Virus genome (UHGV): UHGV-0097017
Origin: a virus
Reading direction: 5' to 3' (one strand)
Length of the DNA stretch: 13,822 bases
A program made the position numbers and the translations under genes. The notes under the pieces were generated by a model, which did not search any database, was not told where the DNA came from, and was given only the letters and a program-made list of their open reading frames with translations. This document shows, in pieces, positions 4,645 to 10,800 of the stretch (position 1 is its first letter; every line of letters starts with the position of its first letter).

Positions 4645-4908
4645 ATGGCCACTTTAACAAAAAAAGAACGGGCATGGTTGAATGAATTACAGGACGTTCT
4701 TGATCGCTGTCCATCACCAAAAAAAATTGGTTTTTACACCATTGGCGATAAAACCATTTACCTGTATGACCTACGCCGCATGGATGAAATCATGGAGGCT
4801 CTTGATAATCGTTCGTCGATGGATTGGTGTGTTGCTGTCCATGATATGAATGCAGGGTTTGATGAAAAGATTTTGTTCCCCTCATCAGTTGAAAGCACTG
4901 CGGGTTAA
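4645..4908 (+). CDS. Hypothetical protein (87 aa)
   Basis: Strong Shine-Dalgarno AAAGGAGAG directly upstream of ATG 4645. Lower GC than neighbours by eye. Confidence 0.6.
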   Translation: MATLTKKERAWLNELQDVLDRCPSPKKIGFYTIGDKTIYLYDLRRMDEIMEALDNRSSMDWCVAVHDMNAGFDEKILFPSSVESTAG

Positions 4909-6463: not shown

Positions 6464-6731
6464 ATTACAGGTGCGCGTAGATGAGCTTGAAAAAGAGAAC
6501 GCGAGCCTCAAAAAAATGCTGTCGCGGGCGGAAAGGGAATTATCAGGCAAATTATTGCCAGAAGAACTGCCACCAGCAGATATACCTGATCGAGTGTCCT
6601 GGTGGATGAAGTATTTCCGTGCACCGTGGGAGGCGTTTTGGTGCTACGACCATCGCAGATGGTGTGATGAACTTGATAGCAGTTTTCCCTACTTTGCGGA
6701 AGGGAACACCTGCCCTCAATGCAGGGGATAG
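6447..6731 (+). CDS. Hypothetical coiled-coil protein with C-terminal CPQC motif (~94 aa)
   Basis: ATG 6447 is preferred over the ORF-track start at 6366 because it limits overlap with the 514-aa gene to 17 nt. N-terminal ELQVRVDELEKENASLKKML heptad-like segment. Confidence 0.5.
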   Translation: MPTKAELQVRVDELEKENASLKKMLSRAERELSGKLLPEELPPADIPDRVSWWMKYFRAPWEAFWCYDHRRWCDELDSSFPYFAEGNTCPQCRG

Positions 6732-7192
6732 CATTTGACGAAATCGATCACCCTATCCTGAACTTCAGAAAGAAGGTCTTTTTCACGCGCCAGGACGTCA
6801 GGATATTGACGTTCTGGCCTTATCAGATGCCGGAGCTTCCCATTAAGCAGAATGGCCTCAGAAAACACTTTTACGCTGTGCTTTATCCCCTCTGTTTCAC
6901 TTTTCAGCGTCAAAATAAAGCGCAATTGCTTATTAGCCTGATTCGGATTCAATACACGAATTTGCAGTTCGTCTATGCTGTTTCGCAATGGGATTGATGC
7001 CACCACACTGGTGCAGTCTCTGATTGTCTGAATTGAACGGCTAACATTGAGAACGTTATTGTGCATGTGCCTGATCCACTAACTCCTGGAGGTTTCTTGT
7101 GTCAGATCGAAATATAGCAGCTAAAAGCCAGGAAGAGCGAGACAAGGTGAACGTAGACCTTGCCGCCAGCGGCGTTGCTTACAAACCCCGCT

Positions 7193-7222
7193 TTCACAAA
7201 CTATGCCTTTTCAATGTATACT
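7193..7222 (+). promoter_or_regulatory. Putative sigma70 promoter of the humD-like gene
   Basis: TTCACA (7193-7198), 18-nt spacer, TATACT (7217-7222); the -10 element overlaps the LexA box. Confidence 0.45.
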
Positions 7223-7238
7223 GTGTGAATAAACAGTA
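7219..7238 (+). promoter_or_regulatory. LexA (SOS) operator
   Basis: TACTGTGTGAATAAACAGTA fits the E. coli SOS box consensus TACTGT-N8-ACAGTA with both CTGT/ACAG arms intact; it sits 18 bp upstream of the humD-like start. Confidence 0.8.
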
Positions 7239-7256
7239 TCATTAAGGTAAAACGCT

Positions 7257-7646
7257 ATGGGCTTCCCTTCTCCTGCGGCGGATTATGTTGAAAGCCGTAT
7301 TTCTCTTGATCAGCAACTAATCAGACATCCTTCAGCGACCTACTTCATGCGGGCGGCAGACAGCCATCACCGTGAGGGAATATTGCAAGGTGCTTTGCTG
7401 GTGGTTGATTCCTCACTTACTCCGGTTGATGGCTCACTGCTTATATGCGCTATGGAGGGAGAATATCGCGTAAAAAGATACCGGAAGTATCCGCGCCAGC
7501 ACCTGGAGGATTTAAGCACCGGGAAGAAAGAGGCGTTACCAGTAGATGACGATGGTTACACGGGTAGTAATGCTGTTTTTGGTGTGATCACCCACATTAT
7601 CAATGACGCCAGGGGCGGTGAATTTGATGATAGTCCTGCTATATGA
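7257..7646 (+). CDS. humD: UmuD'-like S24 peptidase-fold protein (HumD-like), lacking the N-terminal arm
   Basis: Translation starts directly at the GFPSPAADYVE motif that follows the cleavage site in UmuD. Retains the Ser-containing ADSH segment, the LLVVD segment and the Lys-containing GEYRVKRY segment. 129 aa, the size recalled for phage P1 HumD. Confidence 0.85.
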   Translation: MGFPSPAADYVESRISLDQQLIRHPSATYFMRAADSHHREGILQGALLVVDSSLTPVDGSLLICAMEGEYRVKRYRKYPRQHLEDLSTGKKEALPVDDDGYTGSNAVFGVITHIINDARGGEFDDSPAI

Positions 7647-7780
7647 TTTGTTTTCAGAGAAACCATAGAGAGGCATGACTGGATCTATATCGCCCTGGCC
7701 ATTTAAATGATTCCTCCCATTAGACGCGGTTACTCACTTGAAGATAAGATGAGGTTATAATTCTCTTTTTAGGTACGCGA

Positions 7781-8203
7781 ATGAGTTCGTCTGCTTTTGT
7801 CACTGTTGTCACTGGAGTAAGCGTTTTTGTCCTAGGTCGACTCATCATCAAGGGGGTTGAGTCTTACATTTCATTCAAGGAACAGTTGGGGGAAATATCG
7901 CATCTGTTATTGTCTAACCAAGCAAAGCTATCGAATCCCCGCTCTGACTTAAAACAAGAAATCATCCATGATTTGAAAGATGCGGCAGCACAGTTACGGG
8001 TGAAGTACGAACTATTACCTTTCTATATCAAAATGTTACACATCGGTTTTCGCCTTGTTCCATCAGAAACTGAAATTCGTAAAGCGGCGCAAGAATTGAA
8101 TCTGATAGCCTCGATACATGATGGTAAAACCGGAGAGCTGCCATATGAGCACATAGCCAAGATTGGATTACTGCTCAGAATTCCAACCACTTATTCTGCT
8201 TAA
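7781..8203 (+). CDS. Hypothetical single-pass membrane protein (140 aa), low-GC moron-like gene
   Basis: N-terminal hydrophobic helix AFVTVVTGVSVFVLGRLII followed by a charged helical domain. A consensus TATAAT lies at 7756-7761. GC is visibly lower than the flanking humD and phd-doc genes. Confidence 0.6.
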   Translation: MSSSAFVTVVTGVSVFVLGRLIIKGVESYISFKEQLGEISHLLLSNQAKLSNPRSDLKQEIIHDLKDAAAQLRVKYELLPFYIKMLHIGFRLVPSETEIRKAAQELNLIASIHDGKTGELPYEHIAKIGLLLRIPTTYSA

Positions 8204-8274
8204 TCCCAGCAATTGCAAGACTGCATCTCGAGGATTTAAGGCACCAAGAAGTGGTATTCAGCATCATTAAAACC

Positions 8275-8305
8275 TATAATTGCGTACACATAACGAGCAC
8301 ACGAG
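8275..8305 (+). promoter_or_regulatory. Candidate phd-doc promoter -10 and operator region
   Basis: Consensus TATAAT at 8275-8280, immediately followed by two related elements CGTACACA (8283-8290) and GAGCACAC (8295-8302) before the GAGG Shine-Dalgarno. This is the position where an autorepressor would occlude RNA polymerase. Confidence 0.45.
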
Positions 8306-8311
8306 GTGTTT

Positions 8312-8533
8312 ATGCAATCCATTAACTTCCGTACCGCGCGCGGCAACCTTTCTGAAGTGCTCAACAATGTTGAAGCCGGGGAAGAGGTTGAAATCACCCG
8401 CAGAGGCCGTGAGCCAGCAGTAATTGTTAGCAAGGCTACTTTTGAAGCCTACAAAAAAGCGGCGCTGGATGCCGAATTTGCATCCCTGTTTGACACCCTG
8501 GACTCCACCAACAAGGAACTGGTTAACCGATAA
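8312..8533 (+). CDS. phd: Phd antitoxin (prevent-host-death), Phd/YefM family
   Basis: Translation [41 protein letters not shown]... matches my recollection of phage P1 Phd over its full 73 aa. Stop and doc start overlap by 1 nt (TAATG). Confidence 0.9.
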
Positions 8534-8913
8534 TGAGGCATATATCACCGGAAGAACTTATTGCGCTTCATGATGCGAATATAAGCCGCTACGGCGGCCT
8601 GCCGGGAATGTCAGATCCGGGTAGGGCAGAGGCCATTATCGGGAGAGTTCAGGCCAGAGTTGCCTACGAAGAGATCACCGACCTTTTCGAAGTCTCCGCC
8701 ACCTACCTGGTGGCTACGGCGAGAGGGCATATATTCAATGATGCCAATAAGCGTACCGCGCTAAACAGTGCGCTGCTATTTCTACGCCGTAACGGTATAC
8801 AGGTATATGATGATCCCGTGCTGGTGGAGCTTGCAGTGGGGGCTGCAACTGGTGAAATCCCCGTATCTTCAGTAGCGAAAAAACTACGTGAACTATATGG
8901 TTCCAATATTTGA
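8533..8913 (+). CDS. doc: Doc toxin (death-on-curing), Fic-fold kinase
   Basis: 126 aa with the Fic/Doc motif [11 protein letters not shown]; translationally coupled to phd. Confidence 0.9.
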
Positions 8914-8948: not shown

Positions 8949-10043
8949 TCATTCAATGATTTTTTCGGCTGTCAGCCAGCTAATTTCGTGCCTGTCTTTC
9001 GGCGGTTTTAGCATGTGAGCATATTCAGCGACATGCTCCCACGGAATTGTTTTTGCCCACTCAACGATAGCATTGTGATCTGCAGTGAAGAGTGGAATAG
9101 TGTGCGATTTCAACCATTCTAATGTTGTGACGCCATGTTTTTTGGCGTGGTGCTGCGCATGATGCCGGGCTATCACTCGTAATGGCATTGTCCATTCACT
9201 ACCATCAGGCATCGAAAAGCGCATTGTCTTCGGCATATCTGATTCAAGAACAGCCTCCCTAATACCAGGGAACTCACCAAGAATCATACGACGATAGTCA
9301 TCACTATTTCGCCCGCCATACCTTTCGGCAAAATGATCAAGATATTCTTGGGTAATAAATGGTGAATCCTCCGCACTCAGCTTAATGGCTTTATATACAC
9401 CACTCGGATTATCTTCAGCTAAAGCACGTCCATGATGTGAATCATAAAAAAAGCCTATTTCCTCTGGTGACGGAATTGAAGTGAGCAATATGCGTGAATC
9501 ACCACTAGTCATGCTTGCCCACACAATGCTGTATGCCCGATCGCTGATATGTGCGGAATCCACAATAATGAATAAAAGATGGTCGGCGTAGTGACCTGCA
9601 ATGCTATCTTCATAGTTAAGGCGGTAGTTACAAAAGCACATTCCCCAAAATTCATTGAACATCAGACCGCTATCACCGACCTTAAAATACTCAATGATAA
9701 AAGGTTGTTTTTTCAGCAATGCCTCCCAACATTGCCACACATATGCAACAATTCCTCTTTTGCAAACATTTGATTTTGGATAAACAATTACTGTCCGGGA
9801 ATCAGGATACATAATCGTATAAAGGGTACTAATAACAGCAAGCACTTGCGGTCGTCCGATCCCATACGGAGTGGTGACAGTAGCTTTTGCATTATTGGGC
9901 TGTATAGCTTCAACAATTTGTTGTTGCTGGTGGCTTAAATCAATATCAAACAATTCTTTTGCTGCCAGTACCCAATTGTCTTTATATTTCTCCACCAGCG
10001 ACAGCCAGCGCGGATCTTTATAAATATTGCTCTTAGTCGCCAT
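8949..10043 (-). CDS. Hypothetical protein (364 aa), last gene of the minus-strand operon
   Basis: ATG at 10043 (translation MATKSNIYKD...) overlaps the upstream gene's stop by 11 nt; the ORF-track start at 10334 is an in-frame upstream extension. Segments LLFIIVDSAH, ILLTSIPSP and RRMILGEF loosely recall a P-loop/terminase-ATPase-like core, but no canonical Walker A (GxxxxGK[ST]) is present, so no function is assigned. Confidence 0.65.
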   Translation of the reverse strand: MATKSNIYKDPRWLSLVEKYKDNWVLAAKELFDIDLSHQQQQIVEAIQPNNAKATVTTPYGIGRPQVLAVISTLYTIMYPDSRTVIVYPKSNVCKRGIVAYVWQCWEALLKKQPFIIEYFKVGDSGLMFNEFWGMCFCNYRLNYEDSIAGHYADHLLFIIVDSAHISDRAYSIVWASMTSGDSRILLTSIPSPEEIGFFYDSHHGRALAEDNPSGVYKAIKLSAEDSPFITQEYLDHFAERYGGRNSDDYRRMILGEFPGIREAVLESDMPKTMRFSMPDGSEWTMPLRVIARHHAQHHAKKHGVTTLEWLKSHTIPLFTADHNAIVEWAKTIPWEHVAEYAHMLKPPKDRHEISWLTAEKIIE

Positions 10044-10800
10044 CTGCCACTTCCTTAACTTCTTCTTTGGCCTGTTCTGCAATCGCCGCACGGCATTTCG
10101 CCCTGGCTGTAGCGATTGCTTCAGCTCGCACATCGTCTGGAATCGTTGACGTGATATACATATCCAGTTCTTCGGCACGGAATACTGTTTGGTCCAGATA
10201 TTCGCGTAGCATCCAGGTAAATTCGAAATCACACGCGATAATCTCTGCGCTACCTTCTGCACCATTTGGGAAATGAATAAATGCCTGTTTAGCCAAACCG
10301 ATAACACGACATGCGGTTGCCAAAACAGCGACAACCAGGTTTACATTTTCACACGCTACGGGCTGATTAACGCCGGAGATTACTCCATTTAACTGTCGGT
10401 TATATGGAAGGTAGTTTGAGATGCGTTCTACGCGCCATGTGCCAGTCAGGCTGCCATTTTTAAAGATAATTGGTGTAACGGATAGCCCAAACTCGCGTAT
10501 AAGTCGTTGCGCTATAGCAGGATCATTAAACAGGTCTAATGCTACACATTCGAAAGACTGTGCAAGGGTAAACAGTTCTTCAAGAGAGTAGTCTTTGCCC
10601 CTGGCGGTGATGTAACGATGAACGCCGCTTTCTGCATCACTCCATATAGCTACGCCATGCTCTTCATTCAGCTCTTCATTAAAGCCGAGATACGTCATGA
10701 TAGTGCGTTCAATCGTGTCAAACGGCAGTGACATGTCGGCGTTAACAGCCACCAGCAGGCCATTACGCAAGCGGTATTGAATTGTTTTAGTGCTTTCCAT
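10033..10800 (-). CDS. Hypothetical protein (255 aa) with acidic Ala-rich C-terminal tail
   Basis: ATG at 10800 lies 6 nt after the upstream gene's stop, with GGAG upstream. No motif recognised. Confidence 0.65.
   Translation of the reverse strand: MESTKTIQYRLRNGLLVAVNADMSLPFDTIERTIMTYLGFNEELNEEHGVAIWSDAESGVHRYITARGKDYSLEELFTLAQSFECVALDLFNDPAIAQRLIREFGLSVTPIIFKNGSLTGTWRVERISNYLPYNRQLNGVISGVNQPVACENVNLVVAVLATACRVIGLAKQAFIHFPNGAEGSAEIIACDFEFTWMLREYLDQTVFRAEELDMYITSTIPDDVRAEAIATARAKCRAAIAEQAKEEVKEVADGD

Follow-up and report, generated by a model that had tools for sequence, protein, structure and literature searches.

Several genes of temperate phages are dispensable, variably present and low in guanine-cytosine (GC) content, among them fun(Z), old and tin of P2, rexAB of lambda, and sieA and sieB of P22. 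The gene described here resembles them in each of these respects. It is an open reading frame (ORF) of 140 amino acids that lies between humD and the phd-doc addiction operon in the virus genome UHGV-0097017 (13,822 nucleotides; this whole stretch is hereafter called the window). It is the same gene as orf109 of Escherichia phage D6, and the corresponding entries (WP_000098854.1, PHROG 7512) are labelled hypothetical or of function unknown. It differs from the phage genes above in that its product has no sequence or domain similarity to those of fun(Z), old, tin, rexAB, sieA or sieB; the fun(Z) product is also much longer, at about 528 amino acids compared with 140. One link to these genes is positional, as a member of the same family occupies the fun(Z) position in P2-like prophages, on the strand opposite to the tail operons.

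In architecture, the nearest analogues would be the small superinfection-exclusion proteins of the Sie2009 type from lactococcal P335 prophages and AbiP, a membrane-anchored abortive-infection protein, both of which come from a different phylum. These are proteins of about 15-30 kDa with a single N-terminal anchor and no enzymatic motifs, each encoded by a lone prophage or plasmid gene and expressed in the carrier state. Searches of the 140-amino-acid protein against Pfam and PADLOC (PADLOC-DB 2.0) returned 0 matches even at E<=10, and NCBIfam likewise returned none. The Pfam library includes models for SieB, RexA/RexB and Imm, and neither these nor the Abi_* models matched. Because the protein fails every test for exclusion, abortive-infection or defence families that is based on hidden Markov models, it should not be filed under any of them, though it may work alike. 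What we describe is an uncharacterised accessory membrane protein of a known kind, and not a demonstrated new system.

The insert between humD and phd-doc

Comparison with related genomes gives good support to the view that the segment is a "moron", an accessory cassette of one gene that a D6-like phage-plasmid of the P1 family acquired horizontally. The window is 98% identical to D6, a P1-family phage-plasmid, over a 2-kb region around the insert, and the segment of 659 base pairs (bp) at 7647-8305 has 100% identity to the Escherichia coli plasmid p95_MLI121 and 99.8% nucleotide identity to D6. The local order is hot (in a 48-amino-acid form), humD, the 140-amino-acid ORF, phd and doc; unless stated otherwise, all features given here lie on the plus strand. 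The left flank, humD (7257-7646 in the ORF list), encodes a UmuD'-like S24 peptidase, corresponds to D6 orf108 and is homologous to P1 humD. The right flank is the phd-doc toxin-antitoxin operon (8312-8913, with phd at 8312-8533 and doc at 8533-8913). Both flanks are about 93% identical to their counterparts in P1, P7, RCS47, SJ46 and others, and the spacer between humD and phd measures 665 bp (7647-8311) in the window and in D6 versus 72 bp in P1, P7, RCS47 and SJ46. In P1 these 72 bp hold the phd promoter alone, and the layout of RCS47 is the same. Megablast alignments to P1-family phages stop at the end of humD and resume before phd. When aligned with P1, RCS47 and D6, the D6-lineage-specific insert covers about 590 bp (7647-8236), for which P1, P7 and RCS47 have no counterpart. 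Among 50,697 phage records, D6 was the sole match to the segment, whether by DNA or by protein, and tblastn with two distant relatives against all phage records again found D6 alone.

The composition of the segment also sets it apart. Its GC content is 41.7% (7647-8305); the window as a whole has 48.1%, humD 49.2% and phd-doc 50.9%. Sliding windows of 659 bp have a mean GC of 48.2% with a standard deviation of 2.7%, and 1.9% of them are as low as the segment. In a comparison of 77 P1-like phage-plasmids, "highly variable region 8" ended at humD, phd and doc were among the most conserved genes, and variable regions tended toward low GC (PMC9603915). The insert therefore sits at a known boundary between variable and conserved sequence. 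In the sense of Juhala and Hendrix, a moron is variable between otherwise adjacent genes and differs in composition from its flanks, and both features are found here.

An earlier sequence-only reading of this DNA had described a segment of visibly lower GC at 7647-8305 that might be a variable insertion and that carries an accessory gene of no recognised family. The lower GC holds (the segment falls in the lowest 2% of windows), the comparison within the P1 family establishes the variable insertion through its absence from P1, P7, RCS47, SJ46 and other P1-like phages, and the blank results from Pfam, NCBIfam and PADLOC agree that no curated family is recognised. The left bound stands, as humD ends at 7646, but the right bound does not; the ATG of phd is at 8312, and 8305/8306 corresponds to an in-frame GTG upstream of it. 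The accessory, or moron, part of that reading is upheld by presence and absence, by composition and by the slots that relatives occupy (see below), whereas the accompanying proposal of an abortive-infection, exclusion or toxin-like effector gains nothing from homology or from a neighbouring defence gene.

The position directly upstream of phd-doc, with no terminator in between, raises the question of whether the gene serves plasmid maintenance, as a third component or modulator of phd-doc or as a post-segregational toxin in its own right. Genes for RelE/ParE, CcdAB or HicAB lie within about 5 kb of relatives in several other contexts, as this explanation would have it. But the nearby toxin-antitoxin families vary, many contexts have none, and phd-doc is the neighbour in the D6 lineage only. 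Moreover, phd-doc works without the gene in P1, and the insertion has left the phd-doc promoter, Pphd, in place (8252-8280; -35 TGGTAT at 8252-8257, a 17-bp spacer and -10 TATAAT at 8275-8280, aligned with the annotated P1 Pphd). With 140 amino acids and a folded domain, the protein is also unlike the type I toxins, which are hydrophobic peptides of fewer than 60 amino acids with an overlapping antisense RNA. We consider a role in maintenance highly improbable.

Two observations concern the edges of the insert. The sequence after the ORF stop (8204-8274, including …GAGGATTTAAGGCACCAAGAAGTGGTATTC…) aligns loosely to the 3' end of P1 humD and the -35 region of the phd promoter (…GTCATTTAAGCTGCAAAGTGCTGGTGCTT…), which suggests that a second humD end may once have stood here, of which 8204-8274 would be a diverged remnant, and that the right junction may lie near the -10 of the phd promoter. 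Separately, an imperfect direct repeat of 17 nucleotides, 15/17 of them identical, links 7500-7516 (CACCTGGAGGATTTAAG) within humD to 8224-8240 (CATCTCGAGGATTTAAG) just after the ORF. As the homology of humD to P1 runs through the humD stop, past the left copy, this repeat is not the junction; it is probably no insertion scar and probably due to chance, and no other flanking repeat was found.

The gene and its membrane protein

The ORF runs from 7781 to 8203 and is equivalent to D6 orf109 (YP_009914786), annotated as "hypothetical protein". The tblastn alignment to D6 shows an identical protein over residues 18-140, and the identical protein WP_000098854.1 is found on at least 1,000 contigs. 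When the window gene is paired with each of five homologues on other replicons, the ratio of nonsynonymous to synonymous substitution rates (dN/dS) lies at 0.20-0.45, with a value of 0.20 for the nearest homologue; it ranges from 0.08 to 0.53 over all pairs. Because these ratios indicate purifying selection and because homologues number in the hundreds, the sequence comparisons identify the ORF as a genuine gene under purifying selection.

The region upstream of the ORF (7717-7780) is shared with homologous cassettes in a DNA alignment of six contexts, and contains ATTAGAC, CTCACT (7733-7738), TATAAT (7756-7761) and AGGT (7771-7774). The last of these is a Shine-Dalgarno sequence 6 nucleotides before the ATG; it is kept in five of the six aligned contexts (TGGT in Serratia), which supports translation from the MSSS start. 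At the -10 position, five homologous cassettes show partial conservation and read TATAAT, AACAAT, TATGGT or CATGAT. At a spacing of 17 bp, the best available -35 element is CTCACT, which agrees with the consensus at 3/6 positions, and a consensus scan of 7500-8400 called no promoter and found no terminator-like site. The prophage copies run counter to the operons on either side, and a promoter of their own is implied there. GTTACT-like motifs upstream of the gene were considered as a P1 late promoter (-22 box) and rejected, as their distance from the -10 is wrong in comparison with P1 LPhot and LPpac.

Transcription might also reach the gene from its left neighbour. A LexA (SOS) box, CTGTGTGAATAAACAG, lies upstream of humD at 7221-7236, in the same place as the annotated LexA site of P1, and it is the single match to CTGT-N8-ACAG in the whole window. 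SOS-induced transcripts from the LexA-controlled humD could read through the insert into phd-doc. The cassettes of two IncF plasmids (L005 and L006, around 4830-4900) look different upstream: they have conserved inverted repeats (…CAGACTGGAC…GTCCAGTAGACAGACTG…) that are absent from the version in the window and that could be an operator, and the site of the -10 in the window is taken up in them by an in-frame ATG that lies 8 codons upstream.

The product is a small inner-membrane protein that would cross the membrane once. After an uncharged tail of 4 residues comes a transmembrane helix (residues 5-24; 7793-7852), identified by hydropathy, with a peak Kyte-Doolittle 19-residue score of 2.19 at residues 5-23. 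A hydrophobic N-terminal helix is present in all 58 of 58 diverse relatives (mean hydropathy 2.18, minimum 1.55). The remainder (residues 25-140; 7853-8200) is predicted to form a four-helix-bundle domain. AlphaFold2, given an alignment of 12 sequences, modelled helices at residues 3-45, 59-77, 96-113 and 122-132, with a mean predicted local distance difference test score (pLDDT) of 83.2 and a predicted template modelling score (pTM) of 0.75. The composition is 16 K+R and 14 D+E, for an isoelectric point of 8.9. In these results the main elements named by the sequence-only reading can be recognised: the TATAAT, the ORF and the transmembrane helix are all as it had them. Two of its claims survive in part. 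The domain of about 115 residues that it called charged and helical is helical in the AlphaFold2 model and only moderately charged, and the promoter that it assigned to the gene has a perfect -10 but a -35 with just three consensus positions, and the scan did not call it.

The positive-inside rule is an established principle of membrane topology. Among the 58 relatives, the tail before the helix averages 4.4 residues with 0.09 K/R, and the 15 residues after it have 2.4 K/R. By this rule, the enrichment of K/R after the helix predicts an N-out/C-in orientation, from which we infer that the bundle would be in the cytoplasm.

This predicted topology bears on the question of whether the protein has a function in the lytic cycle of the phage itself, as a holin, an antiholin, an inner-membrane spanin-like component, or an accessory of injection or assembly. 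Its small size, its N-terminal helix and a helical domain of similar length give it a superficial likeness to spanin Rz and to class III holins. An inner-membrane spanin has the opposite orientation, though (N-in/C-out, with a periplasmic coiled coil), and the other comparisons also part the two. The neighbours of the gene are humD and phd-doc, with no lysis cassette or other lysis gene close by; neither the gene nor the spacer before phd contains a plus-strand ORF of at least 40 amino acids, so there is no o-spanin candidate, or partner lipoprotein ORF, of that size; and the Pfam models for holins and Rz (Phage_lysis) do not match. P1, P7 and other phages of the P1 family are fully viable without the gene. 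Relatives in lambdoid and P2-like prophages are transcribed against the lytic operons, and those in E. coli are mostly on non-phage IncF plasmids. A lytic-cycle function is accordingly a very remote prospect in our estimate.

The transmembrane segment is the best-conserved part of the family. The mean frequency of the majority residue is 0.57 within it, compared with about 0.40 in the other helices, and the helix follows the motif T-x-x-T-G-V-x-V-F-V-x-G-Q-x-x-x-K-x-x-E-P. Conservation of this kind goes beyond what a passive anchor needs, and suggests that the helix may be a functional interface, serving interaction or oligomerisation. The most conserved positions overall are Q20, K24, E27, P28, S40, Q47, Y82, P94, N107, L132 and Y138, which are mainly hydrophobic or structural. 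Since they include neither His nor Cys, there is no obvious catalytic set, and the protein bears no enzymatic signature.

The D6-lineage protein departs from the family at two of these positions. It has R in place of Q20 (Q in 93% of the 58 relatives), S in place of P28 (P in 97%), and a deletion of one residue between them. Both Q20 and P28 are retained in its nearest homologues, which a 47-kb phage-plasmid and IncF plasmids carry. These changes, the first of them inside the helix, together with the weak -35, are what one would expect if the copy in the D6 lineage were a decaying or neutral passenger, an inactive allele of a family that may function elsewhere. Yet the ORF is intact; more than 30 D6-like plasmids from E. 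coli and Salmonella have it in identical or nearly identical form, and it is found on the contigs counted above; its dN/dS against the nearest homologue is that of a gene under constraint; and its AlphaFold fold is confident. We regard the passenger explanation as improbable.

The wider family is large. The protein matches PHROG 7512 over its full length (E 1.2e-77; residues 1-140 against profile positions 1-141 of 141). A word-indexed search found 18 close clusters, all of them enterobacterial and all "hypothetical", and when 1.84 billion representatives were searched exhaustively with a profile, the clusters numbered at least 1,007 at E<=1e-3, 225 of them at E<=1e-10. Nearly all of the relatives from the profile search are 135-155 amino acids long and are matched end to end. 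When the 58 diverse relatives were searched against Pfam and PADLOC, only scattered matches by single members appeared, at E>=0.0045. Fold searches returned generic helical bundles only, and no structure in the BFVD collection of viral structures matched at E<=0.001. Cytochrome b562, de novo designed bundles and Listeria Lin2004 (PDB 2huj) share the up-down four-helix arrangement at 5-17% identity, with no shared ligand-binding residues; matches of this type are too generic to imply homology or function. The best sequence-profile match in the PDB was a C-type lectin (E 0.0018 over 46 residues), which we judged to be chance, and nothing else there was meaningful. One metagenomic relative (P0014) is fused at its C-terminus to an unrelated sequence resembling a group II intron reverse transcriptase/maturase, which suggests the insertion of an intron into the gene.

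Accessory slots and a possible exclusion function

We located relatives of the protein on 346 plasmids by tblastn. About 32 of these plasmids are D6-like, on 240 the relative shares 60-80% identity with the window protein, and conjugation is predicted for 264 of the 346. Among complete E. coli genomes, 334 of 5,426 have a relative, and 336 of the 341 places are on plasmids. The six plasmid contexts that we inspected all differ. In the D6 type the gene lies between humD and phd; in a 47-kb phage-plasmid it adjoins a helix-turn-helix gene and a RelE module; in a ColV-type IncF plasmid it is between sitABCD and IS1/sopAB; in an IncF resistance plasmid it is beside IS3 and IS26; in a Serratia phage-plasmid it follows the tail genes; and pETEC_35 provides the remaining context.

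Prophages and chromosomes offer further positions. In Atlantibacter and related lambdoid prophages, the gene stands alone between the replication genes (lambda P or DnaB) and nin, opposite to the whole early-right operon. In P2-like prophages (L041, L021, L044) it lies on the opposite strand between the tail fibre/tail-fibre-assembly genes and those for sheath FI/tube FII. The same slot in P2 itself holds fun(Z), a gene annotated as a non-essential lysogenic-conversion gene, a clone of which blocks T5. In a Shewanella prophage, a family member heads an inverted block beside a cI-type repressor. Other members are in chromosomal islands beside insertion sequence (IS) elements or integrase fragments.

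To ask if anything travels with the gene, we compared the genes within 3 kb of members of 16 family subgroups (relatives at least 85% identical). No neighbour was common to more than three of the 16 subgroups, and those three represent the same type of P2-like prophage. DNA conservation of the cassette begins about 60 bp upstream of the ATG and ends at the stop codon. At 15 of 16 loci the GC content of the gene is 2 to 21 points below that of the 4 kb on either side. The lack of a conserved neighbour, the cassette boundaries, the slots and the low GC together point to a minimal, self-contained mobile gene that has repeatedly entered the accessory slots of temperate elements, where temperate phages and plasmids house genes that are active in the carrier state.

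An exclusion, abortive-infection or toxin function is plausible from the architecture and position. Our preferred reading, held tentatively and with somewhat less than even confidence, is that the gene may act against incoming phages or mobile DNA and thereby protect the carrier cell. The protein would be made while the element resides as a prophage or plasmid, either from the weak sigma-70 promoter with its perfect -10, or by SOS-inducible read-through from the LexA-controlled humD promoter, or both. The mechanism that we favour would be a non-lethal exclusion at the inner membrane, in which the conserved helix would dock to the membrane, or oligomerise within it, and the bundle on the cytoplasmic side would obstruct or sequester some stage of early infection or of the entry of DNA.

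The same evidence from context would also suit a single-gene abortive-infection or toxic membrane effector that does no harm at rest, whose bundle senses infection and whose helices then oligomerise and depolarise the membrane, so that the cell is killed or arrested before phage release. The helix is the most conserved segment, the small or polar residues T8, G12 and Q20 along it are compatible with helix-helix packing, and a cytoplasmic, sensor-like bundle would fit such a role. Transmembrane proteins in known defence systems are also often suicide effectors (PMC9122126), which we count in favour of this explanation. It requires, however, that one helix and a bundle of 115 residues both sense and kill. 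In known membrane effectors sensing usually falls to a separate partner, and the present gene has none that is conserved. PADLOC gives no match for the protein, and many stably maintained plasmids carry the gene without an adjacent antitoxin-like gene. Because there is no partner or sensor gene and carriage is stable without an antitoxin-like neighbour, we rank exclusion above abortive infection, to which we give a rather low probability.

A function outside defence altogether would make the gene a lysogenic-conversion or fitness factor, with the protein a membrane-tethered adaptor that tunes a host envelope or stress process such as division, transport or membrane homeostasis. Many accessory genes have non-defence functions. 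Some relatives are in chromosomal islands whose surroundings show no gene recognisable as phage or plasmid, and others are on ColV-type IncF virulence plasmids beside sitABCD; the generic four-helix bundle resembles adaptor or sensor domains, and read-through from humD may link expression to the SOS response. Set against this are the lack of similarity to any characterised host-physiology family and the recurrence of the gene in exclusion-gene slots, such as the P2 fun(Z) position, which favours inter-phage conflict. We find such a function unlikely, though slightly less so than abortive infection.

Several results count against an exclusion function. No known protein of exclusion, abortive infection or defence is homologous to this one, and a literature search by the PHROG identifier and the protein accessions of family members found no paper. 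PADLOC searches with ten neighbouring proteins from five loci gave one marginal match (E 3.9e-4; a small sample with no statistical test), so nothing links the gene by association to known defence genes. The classic exclusion factors face the periplasm or are lipoproteins, and a cytoplasmic domain would set this protein apart from them. The poor -35 and the lack of a terminator point the same way, and Q20R, P28S and the deletion may mean that the D6-lineage protein is functionally altered.

If the exclusion reading is extended to the family, the window gene could be the founding, accessible member of a large unnamed family of single-gene, non-enzymatic factors that exclude phages or mobile DNA, acting through the conserved helix and the four-helix bundle from the cytoplasmic side of the inner membrane; we think this possible but doubtful. 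As a cassette of minimal size, the family spreads through P1-like, lambdoid and P2-like prophages, IncF plasmids and chromosomal islands, in the Gammaproteobacteria and beyond. Should the family exclude phages or plasmids, defence databases as they stand would have overlooked a non-enzymatic system that is very small and consists of one gene. Relatives occur in about 6% of complete E. coli genomes, for the most part on plasmids, ColV-type IncF virulence plasmids among them, and at least 1,000 sequence clusters are spread across bacteria. One lineage-specific gene of the D6-like phage-plasmids, a type often encountered in Salmonella and E. coli, would likewise acquire a function. As D6 and its E. 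coli host are cultivable, the family is directly testable. Without such a function, the result would still be useful, and the gene would be an ordinary uncharacterised one of the accessory kind, bordering a known variable region in genomes of the P1 family. We consider the family to be of moderate interest in that it is large, lies outside Pfam and the defence databases, and is common on E. coli plasmids.

A side observation concerns the block that a family member heads in the Shewanella prophage (L009, 8519-11657). It contains four genes, the others encoding a PIN_12/PIN_8 protein, a pentapeptide-repeat protein and an unknown protein of 228 amino acids, and has no PADLOC match. It may be an uncharacterised accessory or defence block.

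Other features of the window

Across the window, Rfam identified no RNA family, and no site matched the P1 C1 operator consensus at three or fewer mismatches. To the left of humD, the region 6716-7245 lacks lxr when compared with P1 and has hot in its 48-amino-acid form. Upstream of hot is a minus-strand ORF of 116 amino acids (6716-7066), which belongs to PHROG 2594 and is also present in RCS47 and D6.

Between the -10 of Pphd and the start of phd (8281-8305), two bases differ from P1, and D6 has the same changes: TGTGTACACA in P1 is TGCGTACACA here, and GAGTACAC is GAGCACAC. The Phd/Doc operator palindromes lie in this region.

To the right, the window departs from D6 after doc, from about 8871, where D6 carries pdcA and an isaA-like gene. 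The window instead has a minus-strand ORF of 461 amino acids with a TTG start (8949-10334), which is annotated in p95_MLI121 as two hypothetical proteins. This ORF has no Pfam match; it matches PHROG 5902, of unknown function, at E 2.6e-164, and contains a stretch that weakly resembles a terminase large subunit.

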